DNA of 64,000 nucleotides from Bacteroidales bacterium (GTDB lineage: Bacteria; Bacteroidota; Bacteroidia; Bacteroidales; UBA3824), in the NCBI GenBank assembly GCA_045628165.1, contig JAZQPB010000156.1:17367-81366 (forward strand), written 5' to 3'. The position numbers and the translations under genes are program-made. Every line of letters starts with the position of its first letter. Positions within the stretch are counted from its first letter, which is position 1. Shown piece by piece: positions 10,759 to 28,490 of this stretch. Below the pieces are notes generated by a model. It made no database searches. It had not been told where the DNA came from and saw only the letters and a list, made by a program, of their open reading frames with translations.

Positions 10759-10874
10759 CCACTAATTTTCAATAAATGTAAAAAAAACGAAAAAAAATTT
10801 CTCCGATAGGAAAAAATGAATAATATTTGTATTCAATTGAAAACAAAAATACGAATAAAAAAAAGGATATAAAA

Positions 10875-12875: not shown

Positions 12876-12905
12876 CGCCATCAGCTGCACAAAAAAAAAA
12901 ATATA

Positions 12906-13397: not shown

Positions 13398-13401
13398 AAT
13401 G

Positions 13402-13409
13402 TATCTTTG
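13402..13409 (+). promoter_or_regulatory. -7 promoter box (TATCTTTG)
   Basis: TAnnTTTG match 77 nt upstream of ATG 13486. Confidence 0.45.
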
Positions 13410-13485
13410 CAACGTATTCAGCTAATGGGGCCGGCCAGGCTCCAATACACAGAAACAGAATAATTACACAATAAAACCACACCAA

Positions 13486-14391: not shown

Positions 14392-14481
14392 GCCGGACAG
14401 TCCCCATAAAAATTGAATCGCAAAAAAATAATCTGAAAGAAACTACGTTTCTAAATACAGAAAGAATAAGATTATTGGAAT

Positions 14482-15075
14482 ATGAAAACACTCAAGAAAA
14501 TAATACTAGGACTCGCGATGGCGGCCATGCTGCCCATTGCATCGGAGGCTCAAAACTGCGCAAACTTCTTCAACAACAGAAAGCCTGAGGCCCCATACCG
14601 ATACAACACCGCATCCAAGAGCGCTACCGTATGGTCGGGCAAGAAATATGAGTTTGTGCTCCCGCTAACAGCCGGCAACGAATACCGCGTAAGATTCTAC
14701 GCCGCATCGGTCTTCAACAACGACCTCCAGATAAAAATCGTGGACCTGAACTCCGGCGAGACAGTAGTGGACCTGCCGGGCGCAGTAGAGGAGCCCAAGA
14801 AGGGCAACACTTGTCTCCAGGACTACATGGATACCAAAACCAACAAGCTCATCCACCCATACTTCGACTTTGCCCCACAGCAGGCCACATCCATCAAGAT
14901 AATGATAGATGTAAAAGACCACATGGAATACGTGGAAGAGCCCATCCTTGACGAGGACGGCTACCCAACCGGCGAGATGAAGAAAACCGCTGTTATCCCC
15001 GAGGGCGGCATCGAGCAGGTGAAAGGCTGTTTTACAGTTTACGTATCCGACAAGCCGGGTGAGGCCGCTTGGTAA
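14482..15075 (+). CDS. Secreted protein, function unknown
   Basis: Signal peptide MKTLKKIILGLAMAAMLPIASEAQ; 197 aa; no family recognised. Confidence 0.6.
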   Translation: MKTLKKIILGLAMAAMLPIASEAQNCANFFNNRKPEAPYRYNTASKSATVWSGKKYEFVLPLTAGNEYRVRFYAASVFNNDLQIKIVDLNSGETVVDLPGAVEEPKKGNTCLQDYMDTKTNKLIHPYFDFAPQQATSIKIMIDVKDHMEYVEEPILDEDGYPTGEMKKTAVIPEGGIEQVKGCFTVYVSDKPGEAAW

Positions 15076-15110
15076 CAGAGCCATTATCACACAATCAACA
15101 AAAATTCAAG

Positions 15111-15150
15111 AAGGCGAATCCCAGTCACAAAATGGAATTCGCCTTTTATT
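15111..15150 (+). terminator. Intrinsic terminator
   Basis: AAGGCGAAT/ATTCGCCTT stem followed by TTTTATT. Confidence 0.6.
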
Positions 15151-15156
15151 ATTTCA

Positions 15157-15206
15157 CGCCATTAGCTGACAAGGGAAAAAGTATTTTTTATCATATCAGC
15201 TAATGG
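15157..15206. repeat. Inverted pair of the abundant 12-mer (GCCATTAGCTGA ... TCAGCTAATGGC), 26-nt spacer, followed by an A-run
   Basis: Exact 12-nt inverted repeat read directly from the sequence. Confidence 0.85.
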
Positions 15207-15227
15207 CAAAAAAAACTGAAAAAACCG

Positions 15228-15500
15228 ATGAAAATATTTCTTCTATACATGCTTGCAATAGGAATAATCGGCGTGATATTCCTGAGGATAGACAAATACA
15301 AGGCCACCCACGAGAAATGGCGCATCAAGGAGCGCACACTCCACATACTGGAGTTTCTGGGCGGAATATTCATGATGCTGCCCGCCATGTACATTATCCG
15401 CCACAAAAACCGCAAAACATCATACAACTGGATATCGTATGCCGCGCTCACGGTATGGATAGCCGGATTGTGGTATTTTGGCAATAGTTATTTTAAATAA
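15228..15500 (+). CDS. DUF1294-family small membrane protein
   Basis: 90 aa. DKYKA...RIKERTLHILEFLGG followed by a RHKNRK motif and hydrophobic segments, as in DUF1294. Confidence 0.6.
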   Translation: MKIFLLYMLAIGIIGVIFLRIDKYKATHEKWRIKERTLHILEFLGGIFMMLPAMYIIRHKNRKTSYNWISYAALTVWIAGLWYFGNSYFK

Positions 15501-15540
15501 TATTAATAAACACCCGTCCTATATTTGATAAATTTTTGTG

Positions 15541-15548
15541 TATCTTTG
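15541..15548 (+). promoter_or_regulatory. -7 promoter box (TATCTTTG)
   Basis: TAnnTTTG match 37 nt upstream of ATG 15585. Confidence 0.5.
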
Positions 15549-15584
15549 CACTCGATTATTACACACACGCAGGGATACACAAAA

Positions 15585-18500
15585 ATGGACAATAAACAGG
15601 AAAGATACCAGCTTGGAATCGACATAGGTTCCACCACGGCCAAGATTGTTGTCTTCAACAGTCATGGAGATATTGTATTCCATCAGTACGGCAAGCACAA
15701 TACATATATCTATCAATCGCTTACGCAAGCGCTGAAAAACGCCCAGGAGAAGCTCGGCAATATCAGTGTATCCTGCGCCATCACGGGAACAGCCGGAATG
15801 GGCGTAAGCGAGCGCAACGGCATCAAATTCATACAGGAGGTGATAGCGGCCACAAATGTTGTGGAGCTAAAATTCCCTGAGGTTCACACATTGGTGGATA
15901 TCGGCGGCGAGGACACCAAGATGATATTCTTTGAAAAAGGCAAGAGTCCCGACATCCGTATGAACGGCAACTGCGCCGGTGGCACGGGCGCTTTCATAGA
16001 GCAGATGGCGCAACTCCTCAATGTGAAGATAGAGGATATGAACGCGCTGGCCGCCGAGAGCAAGAACCACTACCCTATCGCATCGCGCTGCGGAGTTTTC
16101 GCCAAGACAGATATTCAGAACCTCCTTGCAAGAAAAGTGGAGAAGGCTGATATCGCCGCATCGATTTTCCACGCCGTGGGAATCCAGACCCTCAATACAT
16201 TATCGCGCGGATACGAGGTTTTGCCCAAGGTAATGTTTATCGGCGGACCTCTCACCTTTATGCCCGAACTCCGCAACAAAATGCTCAAGGCTATGCACCT
16301 GACTGAGCAGGATATGATAATTCCACCATATTCGGAGTATTTTCCTGCGCAGGGAGCCGCCTACGAGGCCGAGGGTGAGCCTTCGCACTCGCTCGACGAA
16401 CTTATAGAGCAGTTTCAGAAATCTCAGAACATCGTAATAGAGCCCAAGGACCGCCTTACTCCCCTCTTCAAAGACGAGACGGAATATCAGACCTGGCTCA
16501 AGGAAAGAAATATCATAAATCCTCAACGCGTTGAGTTGAAGGATTATAACGGCAGTCACCTCTACCTTGGCATCGACTCGGGAAGCACCACGAGCAAGGT
16601 GATAATTATGGGCGACAATCACGAGATAATCTTCTCGCACTACGTAAACAACGGCGGAAACACGCTGGAAAAAATCCACGACGCGATAAAGGAATTCTTT
16701 GAGGAGAACAGGACTGTTTTGCAACAGAAATCCCTTGCCATATCGGCCTCTGCCGTCACAGGCTACGGCGAGGACCTCGTGAAGGCCGCTCTCGGTATCG
16801 ACTACGGTATCGTGGAGACATTGGCACATTTCAGCGCCGCACAGTTCCTGAACCCGAAGGTGGATTTCATTATGGATATCGGCGGTCAGGATATGAAGGC
16901 AATCTTCATTCAGAACGGCGTTATCAACAGAATAGAACTGAACGAGAGTTGCTCGGCAGGTTGCGGAAGTTTCATCGAGACATTCGCAAAGACATTAGGA
17001 CTCTCCACACCCGATTTCGCGCAGATAGCCTGCACATCAAGCGCGCCCTGCGACCTCGGCACACGTTGCACCGTGTTTATGAACAGCAAGGTGAAGCAGA
17101 GCCTCAGGGAAAACGCCTCAGTGGGCGACATCTCGGCAGGACTGGCGTATTCGGTGATAAAGAATGCCCTGTTCAAGGTTCTGAAACTTAAAAACTTCAA
17201 CGAACTGGGCGAGACAATCGTGGTTCAGGGCGGAACATTCAAGAATCCGGCCGTTTACCGTGCCCTGGAACTCCTTACGGGCAAGAAACTCACCTCCACC
17301 GAAATTCCCGAGATGATGGGCGCCTTCGGCGCGGCTATCTATGCCAAGACCAAACTCGAACAGGACGGCAAGAACTCAGGAAACTTTGTGGGGCTCGACA
17401 ACATCGACAAGGCATTGGAATACACCAACAAGCAAATACTCTGCAAGGGTTGCGAGAACAACTGCCTTGTAACATCCTTCAAATTCAACAACAAGCAGAC
17501 CTACTACTCGGGCAACAAGTGTCAGAAGGTTTTCAACAGCAAGGGCGAGAAAGTGGAGAAGGGCGAGAATCTCTTCGCCGTCCGCTACAAAATGCTCTTC
17601 GACAGGGAACTGTCTTTGTCTGAAAACCCAAGAATGACGATAGCGATTCCCCGTGTATTGAACCAATACAGCAATTATCCATTCTGGCACGCGCTCTTCA
17701 CGGCCTGCAACATCAAGGTATTGCTGACACCGCCCACCACAATGGGAATGTACGAGACCGGAGCGGGAACCATTATGAGCGACAACATCTGTTTCCCTGC
17801 CAAGATAGTGCACGGCCACATAATGTGGGCATTGGAGCAGAAACCCGACAGAATATTCTATCCGATAGTCACTTACGAGAAAAACGAGTTCAAGAACACC
17901 GAGAACTGTTTCAACTGTCCGATAGTATCAGGATACAGCGACGTTATAAAATCGTCGATAGACCCCAAGGAGAAATACGGAATCCCGTTCGACAATCCTG
18001 TGGTGAACTTCAACGATGAAGAATTGCTATTCAAGACCTGCAAGAAGTACCTGAAATCATTGGGAGTTGAATCGTCTGTGATAAAGAAAGCCTTCAAGCA
18101 GGCGGTGCTTGCTCAGACCGAATACAGATCGCAGATAGCGGTGAAGGCAATGGAGATAATAGAGAACGCCAAAAACAACAACAAACTCCTCGTTGTATTG
18201 GCAGGACGACCATATCACGCCGATCCGCTCATCAATCAGAAGACTCCCGACATCATAGCCGACCTTGGAGCCAACGTAATCAGCGAGGACTCGTTGGCAA
18301 CCTACCTCGACGCTATGGAGTTGCAGGTGATTCCGCAATGGGCATATCCAAACCGAATCCTGAACGCCGCGCAATGGGTGGCCCAGCAGGACCAGAACAT
18401 CACATTCGTGCAGTTGAACTCGTTCGGCTGTGGCCCCGACGCAGTTTTGGTGGACGAGGTTACAGACATTCTGCGAGCATCAGGAAAGAGCAACACCGTA

Positions 18501-19847
18501 ATCCGCATCGACGAGATAAACTCCACGGGAAGCATCCTTCTGCGCATCCGCTCGCTTATGGAATCATACAAGGTAATGGACCTGAAAAACCGCCCCGCAC
18601 GCCGTGAGAGGGAGAAAGTAAGGCCTTTTGAGAGCGAAGACAGGAAGAGGACGATCCTCGCGCCCCACTTCGCCGACGGATACAGCGAGGTATTGGAGGT
18701 TTTGTTCCAGATGAGCGGATACAACTACAAAACCCTGCCAATGCCCGACAAGCGTAGCGTGGAATGGGGCCTCAGGTACGCAAACAACGAGATTTGCTAT
18801 CCGGCCACTATCGTAATCGGCGATATGATAAAGGCGATAAAGGAAGGCCAGTACGACCGGCACAAGATAGCCTTCGCAATCACTCAGACGGGCGGACAGT
18901 GCAGGGCCTCATCGTACATAGCGCTTATGAAGAAGGCGCTGATATCGGCAGGCTACCCCGACATCCCGATAGTGTCGATAGGCACGGCGGGCAAGACGAT
19001 AAACGAACAGCCGGGTTTCGAGATCAACTGGATGAAACTTCTGCCCACGGTATTGCCGTCGGCCATTTTCACTGATACGCTTCTCAGGTTCTACTATATC
19101 CTGGCCGTCAGGGAAAAGAACAAGGGCGAAACCCTCAGATTCAAAGAGAAATATATGGCCCTACTTAAAGCGGAAATGCCATACCGTCAGCCAAAGAAGA
19201 TCTACGAACTTATGGCTCAAATGGTGGACGAGGCCAACAAGATAGAGACCATAGAGAAAGACATCCCGAAGATAGGAATCGTGGGCGAGATTTACGTGAA
19301 GTACAACAAATTCGGCCACAGATTCATCTCCGACAAGTTGGTGGAGGAAGGTGTGGAAGTAGTCTTCCCCCCTATCCTGGAGTTCTTCACTCAGGAAATA
19401 GTGAACGTTAAGAAGAACTGGGAGATGAACCTCAGCCACAGGAAGTTCTCAGTATGGGTATTGCTGGAATTCTTCAAGCACTACATCAACAATGCTATCT
19501 CCAAATCGCAGAAGATACTCGCAAAATCCAAGTATCCATTTGTGTTTGAGAACATTAAGCACATAGCCGAAGACGCCGAGCAGACCCTGAGCCTCAGCAA
19601 CCAATTCGGCGAAGGCTGGCTGATAAGCGCCGAGATATCATCATTCGCCAAGCAAGGCATCAAAAACGTGATATCCGTACAGCCATTCGGTTGCATAGCC
19701 AACCAGATAATCAGCAAGGGAATCGAGAAAAACCTCAGGAAGAAATATCCCGACCTCAATCTCCTTTTCCTGGATTACGACGACGGCGCATCGGACGTAA
19801 ACATTACAAACAGATTGTATTTTATGATTAAGAATTTAGATAAATAG
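15585..19847 (+). CDS. Fused double BcrAD/BadFG-type ATPase (acyl-CoA dehydratase activase-like) with large C-terminal DUF2229-like region
   Basis: Two ASKHA ATPase modules begin LGIDIGSTTAKI and LGIDSGSTTSKV. Each is followed by a cysteine-containing segment (MNGNCAGGTGAF, LNESCSAGCGSF). About 750 aa of C-terminal extension. Start set at ATG 15585. Confidence 0.8.
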   Translation: MDNKQERYQLGIDIGSTTAKIVVFNSHGDIVFHQYGKHNTYIYQSLTQALKNAQEKLGNISVSCAITGTAGMGVSERNGIKFIQEVIAATNVVELKFPEVHTLVDIGGEDTKMIFFEKGKSPDIRMNGNCAGGTGAFIEQMAQLLNVKIEDMNALAAESKNHYPIASRCGVFAKTDIQNLLARKVEKADIAASIFHAVGIQTLNTLSRGYEVLPKVMFIGGPLTFMPELRNKMLKAMHLTEQDMIIPPYSEYFPAQGAAYEAEGEPSHSLDELIEQFQKSQNIVIEPKDRLTPLFKDETEYQTWLKERNIINPQRVELKDYNGSHLYLGIDSGSTTSKVIIMGDNHEIIFSHYVNNGGNTLEKIHDAIKEFFEENRTVLQQKSLAISASAVTGYGEDLVKAALGIDYGIVETLAHFSAAQFLNPKVDFIMDIGGQDMKAIFIQNGVINRIELNESCSAGCGSFIETFAKTLGLSTPDFAQIACTSSAPCDLGTRCTVFMNSKVKQSLRENASVGDISAGLAYSVIKNALFKVLKLKNFNELGETIVVQGGTFKNPAVYRALELLTGKKLTSTEIPEMMGAFGAAIYAKTKLEQDGKNSGNFVGLDNIDKALEYTNKQILCKGCENNCLVTSFKFNNKQTYYSGNKCQKVFNSKGEKVEKGENLFAVRYKMLFDRELSLSENPRMTIAIPRVLNQYSNYPFWHALFTACNIKVLLTPPTTMGMYETGAGTIMSDNICFPAKIVHGHIMWALEQKPDRIFYPIVTYEKNEFKNTENCFNCPIVSGYSDVIKSSIDPKEKYGIPFDNPVVNFNDEELLFKTCKKYLKSLGVESSVIKKAFKQAVLAQTEYRSQIAVKAMEIIENAKNNNKLLVVLAGRPYHADPLINQKTPDIIADLGANVISEDSLATYLDAMELQVIPQWAYPNRILNAAQWVAQQDQNITFVQLNSFGCGPDAVLVDEVTDILRASGKSNTVIRIDEINSTGSILLRIRSLMESYKVMDLKNRPARREREKVRPFESEDRKRTILAPHFADGYSEVLEVLFQMSGYNYKTLPMPDKRSVEWGLRYANNEICYPATIVIGDMIKAIKEGQYDRHKIAFAITQTGGQCRASSYIALMKKALISAGYPDIPIVSIGTAGKTINEQPGFEINWMKLLPTVLPSAIFTDTLLRFYYILAVREKNKGETLRFKEKYMALLKAEMPYRQPKKIYELMAQMVDEANKIETIEKDIPKIGIVGEIYVKYNKFGHRFISDKLVEEGVEVVFPPILEFFTQEIVNVKKNWEMNLSHRKFSVWVLLEFFKHYINNAISKSQKILAKSKYPFVFENIKHIAEDAEQTLSLSNQFGEGWLISAEISSFAKQGIKNVISVQPFGCIANQIISKGIEKNLRKKYPDLNLLFLDYDDGASDVNITNRLYFMIKNLDK

Positions 19848-19928
19848 AACACGGATGACGCAGATCAGGCGGATAGGCGCGGATTTTTTTATCTGCGAAA
19901 ATCCGCTCAATCAGCGTAATCCGCGTTC
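19847..19928. terminator. Nested imperfect palindrome (REP-like / terminator hairpin)
   Basis: Outer arms GAACACGGATGACGC / GCGTAATCCGCGTTC (13 of 15 positions match). Inner stem GCGGATTTT / AAAATCCGC with a T-run in the loop. Confidence 0.5.
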
Positions 19929-19949
19929 AATACCAAACACGATAAAACA

Positions 19950-21182
19950 ATGTTTTTTTACACTTTAGGCATCAGAGTATATAATGCCGCAGCAAAATTG
20001 ATTTCGCCTTTCAACGAGAAGGCCAAAGACTACACACAAGGAAGAAAGAATCTTTTCCAGAATCTTGCCAAGGGAGTAAATCCCAACGACAAGAACGTAT
20101 GGTTTCACGTAAGTTCGCTCGGAGAGTTTGAGCAGGCGCGTCCCGTAATGGAGAAAATGCGCACTCTCTACCCCGACCACAAGATAATTCTCACATTCTT
20201 CTCGCCCTCGGGCTACAACGTGCGCCACAACTACCAGGGCGCCGACTACGTTTGCTATATGCCGGCAGACACTCCCTCCAACGCCAGGAAGTTTCTCGAC
20301 ATAGTGAACCCCAAGGTGATTTTCTTCGTGAAATACGACTTCTGGTACAATTTCCTAAGCGAAGCCCACCGCCGAGCCATTCCGCTGTATATCTTCTCAA
20401 CGATTTTCCGCAAAGAGCAGGTATTCTTCAAGTGGTACGGCAAGAAATACAAGGAGGTCCTCAACTTCTTCACACACTTTTTCGTGCAGGACGAGAACAG
20501 CGTGAAACTACTTGCCGAAAACGGTATCACCAACGTAACCATAGCCGGCGACACCCGTTTCGACCGCGTTTGTCAGATTACTCAGAACGCCAAGAACATT
20601 CCCCTTGTGGATAAGTTTGTGGGTGACAGCAGGGTAATCGTGGCTGGCTCAAGCTGGCCTCCCGACGAGAAAATCATCTTCGAGGCAATGGACCGTCTGA
20701 AATCCAAGCACAACATAAAACTGATAATCGCTCCCCACGAAATCCACGAGGGCCACCTCTCCTCTATCGAGAAAATGCTCTCGGTAAAGAACGTCCGCTT
20801 CAGCAAGGCCGACGAGAGCACCGTATCAGAAAACCAAGTTCTCATCATCGACAATTTCGGAATGCTATCGTCGCTCTACAAGTACGCCGAGATAGCATAC
20901 GTGGGCGGAGGCTTCGGCGTAGGAATCCACAACATCCTTGAGGCCGTAAGTTACTCAATCCCCGTAGCCTTCGGTACCAACTACAAGAAATTCAAGGAAG
21001 CCGTAGATCTCGTATCCCTCGGAAGCGCCTGCACAGTCCGCGACGCCGAGGAACTCTACTCGGTATTCGACAGATATCTCTCAGACAAGGCCCTTCTTGA
21101 GCGCGCAGGCAAGATTTCGTTAGAATACGTTCAGAAGAATCTGGGCGCAGCGGATACGATACTGAAGGAGGCGAAGTGGTAA
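19950..21182 (+). CDS. waaA: 3-deoxy-D-manno-octulosonic acid (Kdo) transferase
   Basis: 410 aa. The N-terminal glycosyltransferase-N motif WFHVSSLGEFEQARPV is typical of KdtA/WaaA. Confidence 0.8.
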   Translation: MFFYTLGIRVYNAAAKLISPFNEKAKDYTQGRKNLFQNLAKGVNPNDKNVWFHVSSLGEFEQARPVMEKMRTLYPDHKIILTFFSPSGYNVRHNYQGADYVCYMPADTPSNARKFLDIVNPKVIFFVKYDFWYNFLSEAHRRAIPLYIFSTIFRKEQVFFKWYGKKYKEVLNFFTHFFVQDENSVKLLAENGITNVTIAGDTRFDRVCQITQNAKNIPLVDKFVGDSRVIVAGSSWPPDEKIIFEAMDRLKSKHNIKLIIAPHEIHEGHLSSIEKMLSVKNVRFSKADESTVSENQVLIIDNFGMLSSLYKYAEIAYVGGGFGVGIHNILEAVSYSIPVAFGTNYKKFKEAVDLVSLGSACTVRDAEELYSVFDRYLSDKALLERAGKISLEYVQKNLGAADTILKEAKW

Positions 21183-21193
21183 ATTTGAATACA

Positions 21194-21243
21194 TTAACCC
21201 ATAGTGCTACGACGACCTTGGCGTCGGGAGTACTATGGGTTAA
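21194..21243. repeat. Hairpin repeat, copy 1 (TTAACCCATAGTGCTACGACGACCTTGGCGTCGGGAGTACTATGGGTTAA)
   Basis: Long imperfect stem-loop. A near-identical copy in the same orientation lies at 25189-25234. Confidence 0.8.
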
Positions 21244-21333
21244 TCTCTCTTTTTCAAAAAATTTCACCCAAATCTCTTGCTATTATCAAAACAATATTGC
21301 ATTTTTGCACATACAAACAACCTACTTGCGACA

Positions 21334-22233
21334 ATGGAAGGAAAAAGAATACCGAAATTTATGAATCCTGTCATCGACCTCGCCTTCAAGAAGATATTCG
21401 AGGTGGAGGAAGTGATGATAGAGTTTCTAAACGACTTGATACAAACCAAGTTGCCTGGTGTAACAATCACAAAGGTTACATACCTGAAAAAGGACGTCAA
21501 CGGCGACAGGCGAGACGAGCGTGGCGTAATCTACGACCTCCGCTGCAAGACCAATACCGACGAGGAATTCATAATAGAAATGCAGAACGACCCACAGGAC
21601 TTTTTCGAAAAGCGAATTCGTTACTACATCTCGAAAGCCATAGTGGACCAGGGCGTGAAACCTGCCAAGACAAGCGTGAAAGACCATTACGTGCCTTGGG
21701 ACTACAACACGCATCCCGTACTCGGGGTTTTCTTTATGAACTTCTACGACAAGAAGGACCTCAAACCAATCTGTCACAAGGCGTGGGTGGATACCGACGA
21801 CAAGACAAAATGCACTCCCGAGGATCCTATGTATTGGAAAATCCAGTTGCCATACTACCGCAATATGCAAGAGAGCGACTGCAAAAGCGACATTGATTAT
21901 TGGATATACAACTTAGCGAATATGGAAACATTTACCGACACATTGGCCTTCACCGACAAGAAGCCGATCTTCAAGAAAGTAGGCGACATAGCCGAGTACC
22001 TCAATCTCTCGCAGACTGAGCAGGAACGCTATTGGTACGAATGGGACCGTATGAACCAGGAGTACAACAAAAAGCAATATCAGATAAAGGAAGGAATCGA
22101 GAAAGGCAGAACCGAGGAACTCAGAAACAACATCCAGGCTCTTATGGAAAATGGGTTCAATTTCGACCAAGCAGTCAAAATGCTTAAAGTGTCAAACGAT
22201 AGATTGGAAATCATACGTCCATTCTTCAATTAA
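21334..22233 (+). CDS. Rpn-family PD-(D/E)XK nuclease (recombination-promoting nuclease / putative transposase family)
   Basis: N-terminus NPVIDLAFKKIF, then VIYDLRCKTNTDEEFIIEMQ (D...E.Q core) and a helical C-terminal tail. Start set at ATG 21334. Confidence 0.75.
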   Translation: MEGKRIPKFMNPVIDLAFKKIFEVEEVMIEFLNDLIQTKLPGVTITKVTYLKKDVNGDRRDERGVIYDLRCKTNTDEEFIIEMQNDPQDFFEKRIRYYISKAIVDQGVKPAKTSVKDHYVPWDYNTHPVLGVFFMNFYDKKDLKPICHKAWVDTDDKTKCTPEDPMYWKIQLPYYRNMQESDCKSDIDYWIYNLANMETFTDTLAFTDKKPIFKKVGDIAEYLNLSQTEQERYWYEWDRMNQEYNKKQYQIKEGIEKGRTEELRNNIQALMENGFNFDQAVKMLKVSNDRLEIIRPFFN

Positions 22234-22486
22234 AGGAATCCCAAATTTTTCCAACAAAAAAATTTTTGATTATAAAAAATAAATATCATATTTGCATACA
22301 ACAAACACCCCTATTCACTAACCATTAAAGAAAGGAGAAAAAAGAAACAGACATTACAAAGTTTACGCAAAACAGAAGACCTTCTTGCCGAGACAAGAAA
22401 CTTCGCAGATAATTTACAGTTAAAATAAATTACTAACTTGCGTAACTGACTTTATAACATATACTTGAACTTGTTAGTTCTTGTTC

Positions 22487-22622
22487 TCTCATCATAAATT
22501 ACCGCCAATAATTTGTAAACGAGAACAAGTACGAAGAAAGGTTCACGCCCTACAACGGCGTGGACTGTTTCGTGCTTTATATTCGTTTGCAGGGCGTGCT
22601 TGGCGGTAAGCCTATGATGAGA
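22487..22622 (+). ncRNA. Candidate structured RNA / leader (family not recognised)
   Basis: A 19-bp interrupted closing stem: TCTCATCATA + TACCGCCAA (22487-22508) pairs with TTGGCGGTA + TATGATGAGA (22600-22622). Internal hairpin CACGCC/GGCGTG. Alternative pairings exist (CACGCCCT with AGGGCGTG; CTTGTTCTC at 22480-22488 with GAGAACAAG at 22521-22529). Confidence 0.35.
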
Positions 22623-22669
22623 ATATTATATAGCATAGAGCAGTTCCGCCGTTAATTTTTTGTTCAGAA

Positions 22670-23077
22670 ATGACAGAAGAAGTAGAAAAATTAAAAACTG
22701 CCCTTGAAAAAGATGATTGGAGAGGCTTTTGGAGACTACTAGACTTCAAAGAAGTTATAGAGTTAGCAGACGCATTCCACCTAGGGAAAGTCTATGAACT
22801 ATATGGATACTATACATTAGCAGTAAAAAACATCGAAATTTATAACTGCAAGGAATTACTAAACGTATTACAGGCAGAAAGTTACGAAGAAATTCCTACA
22901 ATAAACACTACACTAATTCCAAAAGAAATTAAATCATTCTTAGGAATTATTATGAAAGTAGGAATCGAGACCGCTCACAAAATGTCAAACGAATGTACAG
23001 GAACCAATATAATTCTTTTGGATCTATTCAAGGACTTTGAAAGAAGATTTGAAAATGTACAAAACTGTTTAAAATAA
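22670..23077 (+). CDS. Small cytoplasmic helical protein, function unknown
   Basis: 135-aa ORF in the AT-rich island; no signal peptide; no family recognised. Confidence 0.5.
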   Translation: MTEEVEKLKTALEKDDWRGFWRLLDFKEVIELADAFHLGKVYELYGYYTLAVKNIEIYNCKELLNVLQAESYEEIPTINTTLIPKEIKSFLGIIMKVGIETAHKMSNECTGTNIILLDLFKDFERRFENVQNCLK

Positions 23078-23087
23078 AACACAGACT

Positions 23088-23870
23088 ATGAAAAAACTGA
23101 TTGTATCGATAATCTGTGCTTTCATTAGTCTTTCGGCCATAGCACAGGCAGACCTAGGACGTATGGAGAAATATGGTAACCACTTTCCATACAATCTCCA
23201 ACCGTCGGAACTTAACATCAATGGCAAAATCAGTCAAGTCACGTATGAGAATTACAGAGCGCAATACAGATTTGGCGAACTGGAGATTGGTAATCGTGTA
23301 ATTGGATCTGCGTTGTATAAATACAACGAAAAAGGACAATTAATACAATTCCAAAAAAATGGAGAAGGATGGTTTTGGTATTTTGGAAACAACGAATGGA
23401 ATTTGCAATATAATACCAACGGCAACATAGAATCTCCAAACCATATTTATGAGAACGGGAAATTATCCAAAGTAATTTGGGGAGGTAGCGTATATCGAAT
23501 ATTCTATTCGAATGGAACATTAAGCAAGGTTACCAAGTACAATTCAGACGGAGAAGAATCATACACTTCGTATTTCCAAAATGGAGATATGACAAAAGAA
23601 GTGACAACACCTTCTCGCTTCGGAGGATACAGTGGAGAAACCCGTCTGTACACATACACAAACCATAAAATCATAAATGGTGACGGTTGCAAATATTCAT
23701 ACAACAACAAGGGGTTAGTATCCAAAATAATATGCAGAGGTACACCATACGAATATCAATATGAGTATGACACCAAAGGCAATTGGGTAAAAAGAATTCG
23801 TATCGAAAAAGACAAAAACGGATACACTTCAGGAATTGTCTTAACCATTCGAAAAATCGAGTATCAGTAG
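23088..23870 (+). CDS. Secreted repeat protein (MORN-variant / YD-like short repeats), function unknown
   Basis: Signal peptide MKKLIVSIICAFISLSAIAQ. Recurrent Y.(E/S)NG.LSKV and YEYD.KGNWVKR motifs. Confidence 0.55.
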   Translation: MKKLIVSIICAFISLSAIAQADLGRMEKYGNHFPYNLQPSELNINGKISQVTYENYRAQYRFGELEIGNRVIGSALYKYNEKGQLIQFQKNGEGWFWYFGNNEWNLQYNTNGNIESPNHIYENGKLSKVIWGGSVYRIFYSNGTLSKVTKYNSDGEESYTSYFQNGDMTKEVTTPSRFGGYSGETRLYTYTNHKIINGDGCKYSYNNKGLVSKIICRGTPYEYQYEYDTKGNWVKRIRIEKDKNGYTSGIVLTIRKIEYQ

Positions 23871-24006
23871 AATCCAAAGTTAACGATGACAGTTATGACC
23901 AAGTAGGAATATACCACAAAAACATATTTCCGCTTGTTTTAAACATCAACAAAAGGATCTCATAATCGTAATTTACAATTCGCGAATCGTGAATTGGATA
24001 AAAGAT

Positions 24007-24053
24007 AAGCCGTGCGCCGAAGCCAACAACTTCCGCGCACGGCTTTGTTTATT
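24007..24053. terminator. Bidirectional intrinsic terminator between convergent genes
   Basis: AAGCCGTGCGC/GCGCACGGCTT stem followed by TGTTTATT. Confidence 0.65.
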
Positions 24054-24077
24054 ATAGCATCAGAGGAAGTAGGAAAA

Positions 24078-24926
24078 CTAAATCTCCTCGGTCATAAGAC
24101 CCGTATATTTCAATATTAAATCTAATGGCATACCGTCAGCCTTCATCTTCCGGGCCATTTCTATTTTTTCAGCGTGGGCTTGGGCTTCGGCCTCTGCCTT
24201 ACCCTCTTCCCTACTCTGAGACATCGCGGAACGCTCTGTTATCTCATCAAGTTTGGATTTCTCATAGGCGGCTAACTCAGCCTCGGTATATGCTGAACGC
24301 TTAACTATATCGAGAGCCTCGGCAATGTCGGGGTTATCAAGAAGGTCGTCGTCGGCCTCCTGCGTGCTCTCGTCAATCTCGGTGAAATATTTCATCCAAA
24401 GATCCTTCAACGCACGCTGACCTTTATCAACAGGTTTGTATTTAGGAAGTTCAACAAAAATAAGAGCCAGATCGTCGTGGATATCAGTGGGATGATTCTT
24501 GTTGATAACGTAATACTCCTGAATGTACTCGTCGGTATTCTTGTATTTGGAGAATGCGTGGTCGTCTACAATACTGAGCGCATAAACGCTCTTCAAGTCC
24601 TTGAAATCCTGAGCCTTCTCCAGTTGCGACGAATATACCTTTGTGGTATTGTGGAGGGTGCGCACAAAGAAAGCATTGTTCCAATAAGTCTGCATTTCCA
24701 CGATGAAAATGCGGTTCTCGTTGTCCTTGCACTTAACATCCACAATGGAATACTTCTTGGCGGGATTCTCGGGAATCTGTTCAGGAGTAAGGTACGAAAC
24801 CTCTCTGATGAAACGACCCGCCGGCAATGGCAAAAGCGCATTAAGAAGGCTCTTGACCAGATTCTCGTGCTGACCAAAAACTTTCTTGAAAGTAAGATCT
24901 ACCTTGGGATTAAGATACTTGGACAT
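24078..24926 (-). CDS. Rpn-family PD-(D/E)XK nuclease (second, divergent copy)
   Basis: NPKVDLTFKKVF, then YSIVDVKCKDNENRIFIVEMQ and a helical A/E/K-rich tail. Only distantly similar to the copy at 21334-22233. Confidence 0.75.
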   Translation of the reverse strand: MSKYLNPKVDLTFKKVFGQHENLVKSLLNALLPLPAGRFIREVSYLTPEQIPENPAKKYSIVDVKCKDNENRIFIVEMQTYWNNAFFVRTLHNTTKVYSSQLEKAQDFKDLKSVYALSIVDDHAFSKYKNTDEYIQEYYVINKNHPTDIHDDLALIFVELPKYKPVDKGQRALKDLWMKYFTEIDESTQEADDDLLDNPDIAEALDIVKRSAYTEAELAAYEKSKLDEITERSAMSQSREEGKAEAEAQAHAEKIEMARKMKADGMPLDLILKYTGLMTEEI

Positions 24927-24949
24927 AATGCTTTCAATTTATTAATGCG

Positions 24950-24957
24950 CAAAGATA
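24950..24957 (-). promoter_or_regulatory. -7 promoter box (TATCTTTG on minus strand)
   Basis: TAnnTTTG match 24 nt upstream of ATG 24926. Confidence 0.45.
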
Positions 24958-25045
24958 GTTATTTTTCTGATATTTTCCTACACCAGCCCAACAAACTCCC
25001 AATAATTTTCTGGAGTAATAGTCTTAAAAATTGTGTTAGGATAAT

Positions 25046-25148
25046 CCAAATCCCCAAATTCCTACCGAATTTAGTGATTACACTCTCCAAATTTATACCG
25101 AATTTGGGGAATTGACTCTCCGAATTCCTACCGAAATTGGGGATTTGG
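25046..25148. repeat. Three degenerate ~35-nt tandem units with nested 10-nt inverted repeats
   Basis: Units share the pattern (C)TCC(A/G)AAT-T...TACCGAA(A)TTGGGG. TCCCCAAATT (25051-25060) is the exact complement of AATTTGGGGA (25101-25110). CCAAATCCCC (25046-25055) is the exact complement of GGGGATTTGG (25139-25148). Confidence 0.7.
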
Positions 25149-25188
25149 GTATTTCACCCGTCCCCGGAGGGGACAAGCAAAGCATACG

Positions 25189-25234
25189 TTAACCCATAGT
25201 GCGACGACGCCTTGGCGTCGGGAGTACTATGGGG
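25189..25234. repeat. Hairpin repeat, copy 2 (TTAACCCATAGTGCGACGACGCCTTGGCGTCGGGAGTACTATGGGG)
   Basis: Same orientation as the copy at 21194-21243, with about 3 differences. Confidence 0.8.
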
Positions 25235-25353
25235 ATTCACGAAACGCAAAAAACCGCTTTCGTGGAGAAATAAGACGATTCAAAACTTCGTCAAATTGAG
25301 CAAAAAATGATGATTTTGGCGGACTTTTGCAGGTGAAACAGAATAAAAATCCT

Positions 25354-25361
25354 TATCTTTG
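25354..25361 (+). promoter_or_regulatory. -7 promoter box (TATCTTTG)
   Basis: TAnnTTTG match 27 nt upstream of ATG 25388. Confidence 0.5.
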
Positions 25362-25387
25362 CAGTCCACAAAATCCGAAAAACAAAA

Positions 25388-26464
25388 ATGATAAACATAA
25401 ACACTCAAGACCTTATAAAGGTGCTGGATATGACTCCGGCATCTCAGAATATAATGCTTGTGGGAAAGCACGGAATCGGTAAATCCGAAATTCTCACCGA
25501 CTATTTCTCCAAAAAGGGAATGAAGGTAATCGCGCTCTTTCTCGGTCAGATGAGCGACCCTGGCGACCTCATCGGTCTGCCCAACAAGGACGAGAAAACA
25601 GGCAAGACCACCTTTATGCCTCCCTATTGGTTCCCAATGGACGGCGAGCCGATAGTATTGTTTCTGGACGAACTCAACCGAGCAAGGCCAGAGGTTTTGC
25701 AGACCATTATGGACCTCGCGCTCAATAGGAAACTCGCCGGACGATCTCTGCCTGACGGAAGCCGTATTATATCCGCTGTAAACGACGGTCAGGAATACCA
25801 GTTGACCGACCTCGACCCAGCGTTGGTATCAAGATTCAATATCTACGGATTCCGACCCACAAGCGAGGAATGGCTTCTCTGGGCCGCGCAGAATAAGGTT
25901 GACAACCGCGTCATCAACTTCATACAGGAGAATCCAGAGTATCTCGACGGCAAGGTTTCGGCAAATCCTGCCCAAATCGACAACGGTCTCGAGAAATCGC
26001 CCGACCGCCGCGCGTGGAAAAAGGTCTCTGACATTATGCAGAATATCGGAAATATTGAGGACTTCCATAAGAGACTGATATCAGGAGTGATAGGCGTGCA
26101 GGCTTCAAGCAAATTCTGCAATTTCGTGAGCGAGAACAGCATCGTATCAGCAAAGGACGTATTGCTGAAATTCAGCAAGGTGGCCCCTACCCTGGAGCAT
26201 TACCACGTTCACCAGTTCGCACAGGTAAACGAATCGATCTACCGTCATCTGGAAACCGCAAAGATTTCCGAGAAAGACAAGCCAGTAATTGCCAAGAACC
26301 TTCCCGAATATCTCGACCTGATGCTCGATACCAAAAACAAGGAATCTGTGGCGCATTTCGCTACACTCTGGCAAAACGGCAACTACCCCAAGGCGGTTAC
26401 ATTCATGATGATGAACTGCGCCAACATTTACGAGAAGATAATCGACTACATAGAAAACATTTAG
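25388..26464 (+). CDS. AAA_5-type (MoxR/McrB-like) ATPase
   Basis: Walker A VGKHGIGKSE and Walker B VLFLDELNRA, with sensor/arginine region DPALVSRF and a helical C-terminal half. Confidence 0.75.
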   Translation: MININTQDLIKVLDMTPASQNIMLVGKHGIGKSEILTDYFSKKGMKVIALFLGQMSDPGDLIGLPNKDEKTGKTTFMPPYWFPMDGEPIVLFLDELNRARPEVLQTIMDLALNRKLAGRSLPDGSRIISAVNDGQEYQLTDLDPALVSRFNIYGFRPTSEEWLLWAAQNKVDNRVINFIQENPEYLDGKVSANPAQIDNGLEKSPDRRAWKKVSDIMQNIGNIEDFHKRLISGVIGVQASSKFCNFVSENSIVSAKDVLLKFSKVAPTLEHYHVHQFAQVNESIYRHLETAKISEKDKPVIAKNLPEYLDLMLDTKNKESVAHFATLWQNGNYPKAVTFMMMNCANIYEKIIDYIENI

Positions 26465-26470
26465 CGGGAA

Positions 26471-27763
26471 ATGGCGAAAAAGAAGTCCGTCGATACAATC
26501 CCCATAAGGGAGCGCATACAGAAGATTGTGGAAGGCTGGTTCCTGAGCGAGCCCGCCCTCTTCGAGATATACTGTAGCCATCAGTTGAAGGAGAACCCTA
26601 AGATGGCCTGCTGTGCCCGCACTGGAAAAGGCCTCATCGAATACAATCCCGCACTTCTCGAAAACTGGAAAGACGACCACATAGAGTCGGCCCTCAGGAT
26701 AGAGGTGATCAGGATAATGCTGAAGCATCCATACGAGCGTCAGCCAGAGAACGTTAGCGCCGAGGCGAAAACTCTCGGTAGCGACTGCACCATCAGCAAC
26801 TACTACCCTGGGATAATGGCATCCAACATTCTCGATATGGCCACTCCAGAGCAATTCGACCTCCCCGGCGACCAATACTTTGAATGGTACGCGCGCGAGA
26901 TCTACAAGAAGTTGCAGACCGACAAATCTCAGCAGAAAACTCAAGCCGAGGACAACAACAGCCCTGACCGTCAGGAACAAAATGACTCTGACTCGCCCTC
27001 CAGCAACTCCACCTCCGAGCAGAGCAACAAGCAAGCCAAGGGCGGTAGCCAGTACGACGAAGAGTCAGACGGCCAAAACCAGGACAATGCCAAATCTCAG
27101 CAGTCGGGCCTTTGGGAAGAGGACGAGATGAGACAACAGGAGATAAACGAAACTATCTCTAAGATAAAGAATTGGGGCAACATACCTGGAGATATGGTTG
27201 AATACATAAAAGCCTCCACCAAGGCCAAGATCGACTACAGGAAAATACTCCAGGGATTCCGCGCCAGCATAATATCGAGCCGACGCTCACTCACACGAAT
27301 GCGTCCCAACCGAAGGACAGGATTCCAGAACATGGGAAGCATTTACAAGTTCTCGACCTCGGTCTTGGTGGCCGTTGACGTGAGCGGATCTGTAAACGAC
27401 CGCACTCTCGCCAACTTCTACGGCGTGATAAACAACGCCTTCAAATACGGAATAGAGCGGATAGACGTGATGCAGTTCGACTGCGTGGCCCACGAGATTG
27501 TGGAGTTCCGCAAGAGGAAAAATACTGTGGAGATTCACGGACGCGGTGGCACGAGTTTCCAATGCGTGATAGATGTCGCAGCCAGCCATGTGCCAGCATA
27601 CGACGGCCTGATAATACTGACCGACGGATACGCCCCTATACCAAACATACCCTCCCATTTCCCGACCAAGATACTCTGGGTGCTTCAGGACGAGGATTCG
27701 TACAAGAGCAAGGCCGAGGGTCTGTCCGCAACGGGCCGAGTCTGTGTCATGAACTTAGGATAA
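26471..27763 (+). CDS. VWA-domain protein with DUF2201-like N-terminal (degenerate metallopeptidase-like) region and an acidic low-complexity linker
   Basis: C-terminal MIDAS motif VAVDVSGSVND followed by ILTDGYA. The N-terminal segment EVIRIMLKHPYERQ sits where this family usually has HExxH. The linker is rich in Q/S/D/N. Confidence 0.7.
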   Translation: MAKKKSVDTIPIRERIQKIVEGWFLSEPALFEIYCSHQLKENPKMACCARTGKGLIEYNPALLENWKDDHIESALRIEVIRIMLKHPYERQPENVSAEAKTLGSDCTISNYYPGIMASNILDMATPEQFDLPGDQYFEWYAREIYKKLQTDKSQQKTQAEDNNSPDRQEQNDSDSPSSNSTSEQSNKQAKGGSQYDEESDGQNQDNAKSQQSGLWEEDEMRQQEINETISKIKNWGNIPGDMVEYIKASTKAKIDYRKILQGFRASIISSRRSLTRMRPNRRTGFQNMGSIYKFSTSVLVAVDVSGSVNDRTLANFYGVINNAFKYGIERIDVMQFDCVAHEIVEFRKRKNTVEIHGRGGTSFQCVIDVAASHVPAYDGLIILTDGYAPIPNIPSHFPTKILWVLQDEDSYKSKAEGLSATGRVCVMNLG

Positions 27764-27770
27764 TAAAAAA

Positions 27771-27810
27771 AATGCGCAACCCTGTATCCTGCAGAGTTGC
27801 GCATTTCTAT
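27771..27810 (+). terminator. Intrinsic terminator
   Basis: AATGCGCAAC/GTTGCGCATT stem followed by TCTATT. Confidence 0.6.
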
Positions 27811-27817
27811 TAGTTGG

Positions 27818-27847
27818 TATCAGCTGAAATGATATCAGCTGAAATGA
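27818..27847. repeat. Exact 15-nt tandem duplication TATCAGCTGAAATGA x2 carrying the abundant motif
   Basis: Read directly from the sequence. It is flanked by the 8-nt direct repeat TTAGTTGG at 27810-27817 and 27855-27862. Confidence 0.85.
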
Positions 27848-27854
27848 AAAAAAC

Positions 27855-28454
27855 TTAGTTGGAAGATGGCATAAGTCTGTTGCCGCCGATGGTGATGTAG
27901 CCGGGGTAACGAACCACTGAGTTGCCGATGGCGAGATAAGGCTTCAGGGAGAGTTTTACGCGGCTCTTGGCCTTATCGTTGCCGGCAAGACCGCAGGCTG
28001 TACTTACGAGCTTGTCTTTACCGTTTGAGGATAGAATCTCGTAGAGATCGAATGTGAAGGTAACAGGCATCACGGTCTGCTCGTTGGCGGAGAGCTGGAT
28101 TCGCTTGGTCATGGATCCGGCTGTCATCTTCATATCATCTATCCAGAGAATGTACTCGAAACCATCGAGACGGGCTATCGACTGATTGGGATTCCTGACA
28201 TCCACATTCACATTCAGGGAGAGAGGAAAAGATTTTGATGCAAAAGCGTTGGCAATCTTGAGGCCGTCCTGAAGATTGAAGTCCTTGAGGCCCTTCTTGT
28301 TGCCCACCACAATATTGCAGAGCGACACATCCGACACGCTGTTGTAATCGAAATCGCACTTGGCGAAATTGGCAATGCCCGAGATGGCCTTGCAGCCCAC
28401 AAAGGCAAACATGATAACGGCTGCAAGAGCCAAAAGTGTAAGTCTTTTTGTCAT
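27855..28454 (-). CDS. Lipoprotein, LEA_2/WHy-like fold suspected
   Basis: Lipobox FVGC after a signal peptide. The beta-rich segment LSLNVNVDVRNPN...FEYILWIDD resembles LEA type-2 proteins. Confidence 0.5.
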   Translation of the reverse strand: MTKRLTLLALAAVIMFAFVGCKAISGIANFAKCDFDYNSVSDVSLCNIVVGNKKGLKDFNLQDGLKIANAFASKSFPLSLNVNVDVRNPNQSIARLDGFEYILWIDDMKMTAGSMTKRIQLSANEQTVMPVTFTFDLYEILSSNGKDKLVSTACGLAGNDKAKSRVKLSLKPYLAIGNSVVRYPGYITIGGNRLMPSSN

Positions 28455-28490
28455 AATTCTGTCGTGTTTAATATTAATAATAATGGGATT

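Follow-up and report, generated by a model that had tools for sequence, protein, structure and literature searches.

A site-poor tract around a Kdo transferase gene in a Bacteroidales genome, probably recombined in from an unsampled palindrome-avoiding relative or gene pool

Introduction

How does a segment of chromosome come to lack a word that is abundant on both of its sides? The palindrome ATCAGCTGAT/TATCAGCTGATA, which is built on AGCT, is lineage-specific and hyper-abundant in two genomes, the one analysed here (G000) and its sister G005. In the G000 assembly the motif occupies 3040 sites (0.71 per kb), within and between genes, far above expectation. The 12-mer TATCAGCTGATA was counted 262 times in G000, 144 times in G005 and nine times in G010, with 0-1 copies in each of the other 22 congeners. 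An orphan C5 methyltransferase gene (C43:30865-32067) shares the distribution of the word, being found, among 25 congeners, in the two word-carrying genomes only. The window, that is, the whole 64-kb stretch of DNA analysed, contains 101 strand matches to CAGCTGA/TCAGCTG, which merge into 72 sites (about nine strand matches are expected from shuffles), and a preliminary description had reported a 12.6-kb block without any of them. As argued below, this desert is quite probably a tract recombined in from an unsampled relative, or gene pool, that avoids AGCT and CATG.

The comparison set comprised four species: G000, its sister G005, and the non-sisters G010 and G032, all with AGCT-rich chromosomes. 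All compared genomes are metagenome-assembled genomes (MAGs), and that of G000 is fragmented (375 contigs, 6.5% estimated contamination).

The Motif Desert and its Genes

The desert exists as described: 24 of the 72 sites lie up to position 15206, none in 15207-27817, and 48 from 27818 onward. GCCATYAGCTG, with 19 matches in the window, has none within the block. The nearest motif on the left is at 14155-14161, and on the right the next one starts at 27820. Low GC had rightly been discounted as the cause, since 55.6-64 kb, at 41% GC, has 17 sites whereas the block, at 46% GC, has none. A Poisson model makes the gap improbable, although stretches of this kind are common in the assembly: 9.7% of its 12.6-kb windows are without any CAGCTGA/TCAGCTG site, 40 motif-free stretches of at least 10 kb make up 14% of it, and the present gap is the eighth largest among its internal motif gaps. 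AGCT-/CATG-free DNA represents ~9% of the assembly, and the desert share overall is about 9-14%. Common deserts of similar size, or relatives that have the same block in the same gene order with normal motif density, had been named as observations that would count against a separate history of the block. Deserts are indeed common and relatives do have the block, but neither fact defeats that reading, because the other deserts show the same AGCT-/CATG-free signature as the 15.8-27.8 kb tract and the block is motif-free in the relatives as well. The features of the locus are the following:

14162..27819, no strand: CAGCTGA/TCAGCTG-free gap (first described as 15207-27817)
15157..15207, no strand: inverted pair GCCATTAGCTGA...TCAGCTAATGGC, arms 15158-15168 (+) and 15197-15207 (-)
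15228..15500, + strand: DUF1294 gene, on the native side, ~80% identical to G010
15525..19847, + strand: CoA-enzyme activase, 1440-aa ORF with two BcrAD_BadFG ATPase domains and DUF2229
15700..15865, no strand: left recombination breakpoint (last AGCT 15865, last CATG 15663)
15866..27821, no strand: AGCT-poor tract, with a single AGCT (at 20652) in 11,956 bp
19950..21182, + strand: Kdo transferase (waaA-like), 96-97% aa identical in G005, G010 and G032
21189..21239, + strand: 51-nt hairpin direct repeat, left copy, bounding the cargo island
21277..22233, + strand: Rpn-family PD-(D/E)XK nuclease a, with a 96-100% identical counterpart in G032
22244..22661, + strand: non-coding segment of 418 nt, at 99.5% identity also in G010 but ahead of another gene there
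22670..23870, + strand: two ORFs of 135 and 260 aa, 35-40% GC, with no family match
24078..24926, - strand: Rpn-family PD-(D/E)XK nuclease b
25184..25233, + strand: 51-nt hairpin direct repeat, right copy, bounding the cargo island
25388..26464, + strand: AAA_5 (MoxR-like) ATPase, 97.5% aa identical to G010
26471..27763, + strand: DUF2201 protein (metallopeptidase-like and VWA-like); the G005 allele differs (83% aa)
27818..27847, no strand: tandem motif pair (starts 27820 and 27835) in the DUF2201/LEA_2 spacer
27855..29465, - strand: LEA_2 and polyprenyl synthase, with which native genes resume right of the tract

The gene labels first given to the block (DUF1294, the activase with its doubled BcrAD_BadFG domain and DUF2229, the Kdo transferase, two Rpn genes, AAA_5 and DUF2201) proved right; both Rpn genes have Rpn/PDDEXK_2 family matches. 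The motif pairs that were thought to mark both edges are incidental. The left one is a hairpin-like insertion of ~55 bp, which G000 and G005 share and which G010 and G032 lack at the corresponding intergenic position, and it sits 0.65 kb outside the left breakpoint, beyond the putatively imported tract. Such pairs are common, 22% of motif sites having another within 60 bp. On the right, AGCT resumes at the tandem pair, and the edge of the site-free tract is therefore placed there.

Depletion of Short Palindromes

The absence is deeper than was claimed, as it reaches the four-base core of the word. Where the AGCT-poor tract has a single AGCT, base frequencies predict 44.8 and the rate of the flanks predicts 69 (P about 2e-18), and CATG is missing across 10.7 kb (15664-26403). 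CCGG is ~2.7-fold depleted in the same tract; GGCC and GATC are normal. Per kb, the block has 0.13 AGCT, 0.51 CATG and 1.39 CCGG, compared with 5.80, 3.52 and 3.80 in the flanks, and its deviation is limited to these few palindromic words (CCGG in part). The avoidance profiles of short palindromes are species-specific among the congeners.

The loss of AGCT and CATG exceeds what amino-acid and codon usage predict, as is characteristic of restriction-site avoidance. For instance, the activase gene contains three AGCT, all at or before 15865, versus 16.2+/-3.0 expected from synonymous-codon shuffles, and the block genes together contain four versus about 32; flank genes are at or above the expectation of such shuffles. 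The depletion extends over the intergenic DNA and the unrelated accessory genes of the tract, and in G005, G010 and G032 the same tract is AGCT- and CATG-poor with flanks rich in both. Nonetheless, the block is not compositionally foreign in the general sense first proposed: in tetranucleotide distance it ranks at the 30th percentile among windows of the genome and its GC is 46%, only the 4-kb island at 21.2-25.3 kb being atypical (40% GC, tetranucleotide distance 0.318).

Identity to Relatives and Synteny

In the flanks, pairwise DNA identity is 95.0% for G000-G005, 98.5% for G010-G032 and 79.7-80.0% for the cross pairs. Inside the tract, all six pairs of the four species fall at 91.8-94.6%, in a star-like fashion, so that G010 and G032 are 91.8% identical inside versus 98.5% outside. 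For G000-G005 the two values are about equal (94.6% in the tract), and this pair taken alone fits one import before the split as well as it fits two. Sliding comparisons of G000 with G010 and G032 give 68-85% identity across the flanks. Identity reaches 90-97% over 16.0-21.0 kb and 99-100% over 21.3-22.7 kb, then 86-96% over 25.4-26.6 kb, and is back at about 75% beyond 27.9 kb. The left breakpoint is marked by a climb from 74% to 94-98% at ~15.8 kb; within the DUF2201 gene, identity to G010 drops from about 90% to about 80% past ~26.6 kb. Fourfold-degenerate sites are 77-83% identical in the activase and Kdo transferase genes versus 48-68% in flank genes, so protein constraint does not explain the jump.

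In the activase tree the four alleles group tightly at the end of a long stem (0.26), with G000 outside G005, G010 and G032 (support 90/95), in conflict with the flank relationships. Among the AGCT sites of the flanks, 88% are common to G000 and G005 and about 50% to G000 and G010, which indicates that the AGCT-rich state predates the split of these species. Judging from these sequences, the tract alleles coalesce much later than that state arose. The suggestion that the block has another evolutionary history than its flanks is thus borne out by the jump in identity to G010 and G032 (about 75-80% in the flanks, 92-100% inside the block), the star-like distances and the discordant tree, and the locus displays the marks of an introgression tract: higher identity to a non-sister taxon, localisable breakpoints, and incongruence that includes synonymous sites. 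A donor lineage was not found in the genome_contigs and metagenome_contigs, where the best matches beyond the four species are 84-86% identical at the amino-acid level. The pattern recurs in a second desert, on contig C250, whose gene we take by eye to be an HrpB-like helicase: identity to G010 is 86-91% inside versus 78% outside and identity to G005 falls to 87%, although identity there does not rise at exactly the positions where AGCT is lost.

The block had been described as a possible recent acquisition, and for the activase and Kdo transferase genes this is contradicted by synteny. The activase is present in most congeners, and in each of the six relatives outside the four-species group whose copy of this locus was examined the Kdo transferase comes after it, either immediately or no more than a few kb away; these backbone genes are syntenic across the genus. 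The Kdo transferase is single-copy in the G000 genome, where the proposed search for a second waaA gave none. In G002 the order is activase, Kdo transferase, LEA_2, polyprenyl synthase, with LEA_2 directly following the Kdo transferase and the 21.2-27.8 kb segment missing from this site. On this sequence comparison, what is foreign in the tract is the allele and not the gene, a replacement rather than an addition.

Origin of the Tract

The favoured explanation is that homologous recombination exchanged the segment at ~15.8-27.8 kb for the DNA of a source that has not been sampled. This source would be kin of the four-species group, with about 50% GC and normal GGCC and GATC, that avoids AGCT and CATG; it may be a sister lineage with an AGCT-avoiding chromosome, or else a persistent pool of DNA that passes from species to species. 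The crossovers would have taken place in conserved backbone, the left one at the 5' end of the activase gene and the right one in the DUF2201/LEA_2 spacer. Between them lies a cargo hotspot, hypervariable and set between the Kdo transferase and AAA_5 genes, and exchange of the cargo would drag the adjacent core genes along. The direction of transfer, presumably into G000, is suggested by the word signature rather than by an identified donor, and several independent imports probably occurred. Restriction, with putative AluI-like and NlaIII-like specificities, may keep the source DNA site-free. The lack of the long motif and the single AGCT of the imported tract would follow if this DNA has been only briefly in a genome where the motif is made or tolerated. 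Had the tract been in place ever since G000 and G005 split, three to five new motifs or AGCT would be expected against the 0-1 observed, an arithmetic that is suggestive only.

The cargo hotspot, at 21.2-25.2 kb, is of low GC, lies inside the tract and is flanked by the 51-nt hairpin repeats. Its content varies with the species: two Rpn genes and unknowns in G000, AbiEi/AbiEii and an ATPase in G005, and DUF3990 and unknowns in G010, while the G032 contig ends inside the island. The repeat bounds the cargo in G000 and G010, and one full copy was found in G005. These direct repeats and nuclease genes would suit a self-mobile element of 12 kb with its own activase and Kdo transferase, purged of AGCT and CATG by selection for escape from restriction during transfer, and so would the site-free fraction of the assembly, which includes whole AGCT-/CATG-free contigs with several C5 methyltransferases and Rpn genes. 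The two Rpn nucleases and the repeat belong to the inner 4 kb, and patchy presence among relatives is likewise seen for the inner part of the tract only. An element of 12 kb is improbable: no integrase, relaxase or tRNA was found in or beside the tract; the single-copy Kdo transferase and the activase keep their ancestral position; the left edge falls inside a gene rather than at an attachment site; and the right part declines gradually in identity, as is typical of recombination tracts.

Fragmentation and contamination of the G000 assembly could also produce a chimera, in assembly or binning, of two co-occurring related populations, AGCT-rich and AGCT-free, and the whole AGCT-free contigs could belong to another organism. 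This is very improbable, since the junction between AGCT-rich flank and AGCT-poor tract is at the same left position in four MAGs, which are filed in GenBank as separate records under isolate names of their own (one a MAG from horse faeces, two from differently numbered samples), and the right junction is seen in the three MAGs whose contigs reach that far. Moreover, the flanks differ by up to 20% between MAGs, every tract allele is distinct, and the left junction lies within one open reading frame that is kept intact. Least credible of all is a native and old tract in which local selection (on expression, RNA structure or protein) excludes the motif, AGCT and CATG and slows divergence: the activase and Kdo transferase are indeed highly conserved (97-98% aa identity), and HIP1 is absent from highly expressed genes in Synechococcus (PMC3025956), but synonymous sites too are far more alike than in the flanks, the words are depleted from intergenic DNA and from unrelated accessory genes too, G010 and G032 diverge more inside than outside, which is the opposite of slow evolution, and the equally conserved flank gene orf780 (100% aa to G005) has three sites and 21 AGCT.

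Relation to Known Systems and Biological Meaning

Replacement by recombination, as favoured here, is a kind of event already known, comparable to HIP1-poor or DUS-poor islands, of which the locus is a clean and unusually clear example. Short palindromes that are restriction sites are avoided in phages, plasmids and some chromosomes, an avoidance reportedly treated by Rusinov et al. in 2018. As in those cases, the palindromic 4-mers AGCT and CATG are depleted here far beyond the prediction from codon usage; unlike the usual cases, the signature appears in a housekeeping chromosomal tract of a site-rich genome, and is therefore usable as a tracer of ancestry. Hotspots of horizontal gene transfer are said, after Oliveira, Touchon, Cury and Rocha (Nat Commun, 2017), to be flanked by core genes with raised homologous recombination. 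The present locus resembles them in its variable, species-specific cargo at the same site between core genes and in recombination tracts that decay with distance in neighbouring core genes, but the exchange spans species ~20% divergent in DNA, with imported alleles in all four species sampled.

In Synechococcus elongatus PCC 7942, HIP1-poor genes mark recent xenologs (PMC3025956), and HIPs have been linked with orphan methyltransferases (PMC4390886). Like HIP1, the word is a hyper-abundant palindrome formed in situ genome-wide, whose absence flags newly arrived DNA, and like HIP it is lineage-specific with a candidate orphan C5 methyltransferase in the same two genomes. It differs in phylum and in the word itself (ATCAGCTGAT); furthermore, the desert consists of core syntenic genes with a congeneric allele and not of alien genes with odd codons, and the imported DNA avoids the four-base core of the host's word. 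In Neisseriaceae, according to two papers, gaps in an abundant short word (DUS/USS) locate horizontally acquired DNA and ICEs, and DUS dialects differ among close species (PMC2397512, PMC7371117). The likeness is in word gaps as a marker, with no uptake-signal role claimed for the word here, and the difference is that this desert would result from homologous allelic replacement and not from insertion of an element.

An LPS core gene present in one copy and another, large housekeeping gene would thus have been replaced by alleles common to four species of one uncultured gut Bacteroidales genus, probably as a side effect of the exchange of cargo at a hotspot for toxin-antitoxin and nuclease genes. 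Short-palindrome fingerprints (AGCT, CATG, GGCC, GATC) trace this exchange where GC and overall oligonucleotide usage fail, and the lack of ATCAGCTGAT in recently arrived DNA indicates that the word is made in situ after arrival, which gives a handle on timing. It is possible, although rather doubtful, that genomes of the clade have two compartments, an AGCT-tolerant resident chromosome and a mobile AGCT-/CATG-free pool. The resident chromosome, presumably protected by methylation, may tolerate and multiply AGCT, and the long word would arise from the joint action of a Vsr-type repair nuclease and the orphan C5 methyltransferase that is specific to G000 and G005. The site-free pool (~9%) may include housekeeping genes, among them those for the Kdo transferase, a helicase, glycoside hydrolases and efflux pumps, and may pass freely between species 20% divergent, with restriction as a sieve that lets in only site-free DNA. 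If genomes are so divided, palindrome fingerprints would provide an alignment-free map of interspecies gene flow in uncultured gut Bacteroidales.

The motif desert and its composition

The source assembly (4.3 Mb, 375 contigs) is a metagenome-assembled genome (MAG) of an uncultured gut Bacteroidales, and its nearest records are MAGs from horse faeces and other Bacteroidales MAGs. The window contains 101 strand matches to CAGCTGA/TCAGCTG, a motif of a hyper-abundant palindromic word, against about 9 expected. Merged, they form 72 sites, 24 of them at or before 15206, 48 beyond 27817 and none in 15207-27817; the longer motif GCCATYAGCTG, with 19 matches in the window, is equally missing from this block. 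Low GC is not the cause of the gap, as 55.6-64 kb has 41% GC and still bears 17 sites, and the gene labels given for the block in the preliminary description are all correct. The desert that it reported is therefore real. Deserts of this kind are not rare in the genome, which has 3040 motif sites, or 0.71 per kb with a median gap of 513 bp, and 14 internal gaps longer than 10 kb, among which this one ranks eighth; 9.7% of 12.6-kb windows lack any site, and motif-free stretches of at least 10 kb make up 14% of the assembly. The genes concerned are:

15525-19847, CoA-enzyme activase
19950-21182, Kdo transferase (KdoT, waaA-like)
about 21.2-25.2 kb, cargo island
25388-26464, AAA_5 gene
26471-27763, DUF2201 gene
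27855-29465, LEA_2 and polyprenyl synthase genes, beyond the right edge

The desert is also deeper than first stated, since AGCT and CATG are depleted as well. AGCT is found at 15865, then at 20652 and next at 27822, so the 11,956 bp of the tract 15866-27821 contain a single copy; base frequencies predict 44.8 and the flank rate 69 (P ~2e-18). CATG, with a flank density of 3.5 per kb, is absent from 15664-26403. CCGG is about 2.7-fold lower in the tract, while GGCC, GATC and the remaining four-nucleotide palindromes are normal. In synonymous-codon shuffles, 16.2+/-3.0 AGCT are expected in the activase gene, which has 3 (all at or before 15865), and about 32 in the block genes summed, which have 4; flank genes are at expectation or higher. 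Separately, CTAG is nearly absent genome-wide (0.13 per kb). It had been proposed that the block is compositionally foreign, but overall it is not: once motif sites are masked, its tetranucleotide distance ranks at the 30th percentile among windows of the genome, and AT-rich DNA is confined to a 4-kb island within it. A literature search on AGCT avoidance in Bacteroidales found nothing relevant.

Allele history of the tract

Of the 18 genomes of the genus covered by the first search, 15 have the activase (1440 aa), with 77-97% amino acid identity; the three genomes lacking it are 61-72% complete, except one at 93%. KdoT follows the activase, directly or within a few kb, in every relative examined at the locus, and the order in the congener G002 is activase, KdoT, LEA_2, polyprenyl synthase, hyp202, hyp347 and DUF4271, with nothing between. 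KdoT is single-copy here, so the second waaA copy sought in the genome does not exist. These observations together show that the backbone genes are ancestral at the locus; their alleles are not.

DNA identity to two same-genus genomes, G010 and G032, ranges over 68-85% in the flanks and then rises to 94-98% at about 15.8 kb; it is 90-97% up to 21.0 kb, 99-100% at 21.3-22.7 kb, 86-96% at 25.4-26.6 kb and about 75% past 27.9 kb; at fourfold-degenerate sites it is 77-83% vs 48-68% in the flanks. In the flanks, this genome and its sister species G005 are 95.0% identical, G010 and G032 98.5%, and the cross pairs 80%, whereas in the tract all six pairs of the four genomes fall at 91.8-94.6%, so that G010 and G032, near-identical outside, are 8% apart within. 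This matrix is decisive for an allele history unlike that of the flanks, most likely one of recombinational import. In a tree of the activase, a long stem leads to a tight cluster of the four alleles, with the present one placed outside the other three. In G005, G010 and G032 the tract is also poor in AGCT and CATG and the flanks rich in both, and the residual AGCT sites of the tract differ in position among the four genomes. Just left of the breakpoint, at 15400-15800, this genome is only 74-90% identical to G005 and also differs from G010 and G032; this 400-bp segment either stems from yet another source or evolves fast.

A self-mobile 12-kb element is conceivable for the source pool but unlikely, as it conflicts with the breakpoint inside the activase gene and with the ancestral synteny of the locus; neither a tRNA nor an integrase is present at the tract. 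Four MAGs with separate GenBank records, each carrying a distinct tract allele, have AGCT-rich flanks that meet the tract at one and the same position on the left, which makes an assembly chimera unlikely. Local constraint on a native tract is contradicted by synonymous sites, by the depletion of intergenic DNA and by the inverted G010/G032 distances.

The motif pairs had been proposed as marks of the block edges. However, the left inverted pair (15158/15197) is 0.65 kb outside the breakpoint, and 22% of the motif sites in the genome have a neighbour within 60 bp (10% expected). This intergenic left pair (15157-15207) is a unit of about 55 bp that this genome shares with G005 but that G010 and G032 lack. 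Attachment or boundary sites are thereby rejected, and such pairs are a common intergenic form with no boundary role. That the unit is inserted by comparison with G010 and G032 suggests that some intergenic copies arrive as small hairpin units, not as point mutations. Motif copies genome-wide favour spacings of about 15, 25 and 29-30 bp.

Proposed source of the imported alleles

Counts of CAGCTG, used as a stand-in for AGCT, range from 27 to 3561 per genome among 25 congeners, and from them AGCT is avoided by most species of the genus, the exceptions being this species, G005, G010 and G032. Loci sampled outside these four are all poor in GGCC and GATC too. The set of avoided palindromes is a fingerprint particular to each species. 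The spread of CAGCTG/AGCT within this one genus is about 100-fold, and one locus has a single AGCT in 40 kb. Since GGCC and GATC are at normal levels in the tract and its GC is about 50%, the source would belong with the four species in one group, yet avoid AGCT and CATG. A search for related loci in genome and metagenome contig collections yielded no such donor, with 84-86% amino acid identity as the best outside the four species. G010 shares half of the AGCT sites in this genome's flanks, so the AGCT-rich state predates their split, while the tract alleles coalesce far later. In G010 (C35, about 8000-23000) the CATG-free part runs some 4.5 kb past the AGCT-poor part, across LEA_2, polyprenyl synthase and the next genes, which implies a putative mosaic of imports with differing word signatures.

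In 40 stretches of at least 6 kb (391 kb, 9.1% of the assembly), AGCT and CATG together number no more than one per 2 kb, and about half of these stretches lie within AGCT-rich contigs. One 25-kb contig lacks both words, and CATG is missing from nearly all 10-kb windows that are poor in AGCT. Examples of the stretches are:

C38, whole contig
C268:16000-30500
C32:12500-26000
C250:10000-18000

The C250 stretch repeats the pattern of the tract, with identity to G010 of 86-91% inside vs 78% outside, and identity to G005 down to 87%. Judged by eye, the coding content of the stretches goes beyond mobile elements, with glycoside hydrolases, an HrpB-type helicase, an RND pump and defence-like ATPases. 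Metabolic and housekeeping genes occur in them as well as methyltransferase-rich contigs. Some whole contigs may be MAG contamination.

A cargo hotspot between KdoT and AAA_5

In this genome the low-GC cargo region between KdoT and AAA_5 is bounded by two copies of a 51-nt hairpin repeat, TTAACCCATAGTGCxACGACGCCTTGGCGTCGGGAGTACTATGGG, which is preceded in 3 of its 4 copies by a GTCCCC...GGGGAC hairpin. G005, G010 and G032 also have the repeat at this hotspot. Cargo differs from species to species:

21189-21239 and 25184-25233, 51-nt hairpin repeat bounding the cargo
C350:~2890-2970 and C228:~7747-7825, the same element elsewhere in the genome
cargo of this genome, two Rpn (PD-(D/E)XK family) nucleases and two unknown ORFs
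cargo of G005, DUF6088/AbiEi, AbiEii and an ATPase_2 protein
cargo of G010, DUF3990 and unknowns

Identity between species peaks beside the cargo and declines outward, as expected if cargo were exchanged by recombination in the conserved neighbours, which would be dragged along. PADLOC and NCBIfam recognize no defence system among the island proteins, the Rpn family being the sole match. A non-coding segment of 418 nt (22244-22661) matches G010 at 99.5% identity, against a divergence of about 20% between the two in core DNA; the genes immediately downstream of it are unrelated between the two genomes. The segment has a partial copy (71% identical) on C25 and is a possible leader, promoter or RNA common to both. 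Rfam gave no match in the whole window (gathering thresholds) or the island (E<=1), including the hairpin repeat and the 418-nt segment.

The word and an orphan methyltransferase

The word itself reads ATCAGCTG; TCAGCTGA and TATCAGCTGATA are its palindromic forms, and GCCATCAGCTG is an asymmetric one. It is lineage-specific: its 12-mer form has 262 copies here, 144 in G005, 9 in G010 and 0-1 in 22 other species of the genus. Flank sites are mostly common to this genome and its sister G005; at the shared positions, near-matches are usual in G010 and G032 (e.g., CGGCTGAC). Some sites are gained here alone, so the word arises in situ and is still being formed. Gains specific to this genome (9228, 9009, 37281) can involve substitution clusters; at 9228 it differs from both G005 and G010 at 5 places in 11 nt, which hints at patch-wise conversion over single mutations. 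Among one-mismatch variants, TTAGCTGA (C to T, position 2) is the most enriched and TCGGCTGA the most depleted.

Elsewhere in the genome, beyond the window, an orphan C5 cytosine methyltransferase gene (C43:30865-32067) lies, judged by eye, between an ABC-F ATPase and a solute symporter gene, and its homologues are named simply 'DNA cytosine methyltransferase'. Among 25 congeners it is found only here and in G005, at 95% identity, and these are exactly the genomes in which the ATCAGCTGAT word is hyper-abundant. A TATCAGCTGATA copy overlaps the 3′ end of the gene. A link to methyltransferases has been proposed for the HIPs of cyanobacteria (PMC4390886), which the co-occurrence of word and enzyme parallels. 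Vsr was rejected as the factor separating motif-bearing genomes: it is present in 13 of the 25 congeners, some without the motif.

Comparison with known cases

Restriction-site avoidance by mobile DNA is classical. The desert belongs to known kinds, which are this avoidance, HIP1 scarcity and DUS distribution. HIP1 scarcity flags xenologs in Synechococcus (PMC3025956), and DUS distribution is reported to serve likewise for finding acquired DNA in Neisseria (PMC2397512, PMC7371117). Unlike these cases, the replaced DNA here would be core and congeneric, the imported DNA would avoid the very tetranucleotide that underlies the iterated word of its host, and imported alleles would be present in all four sampled species.
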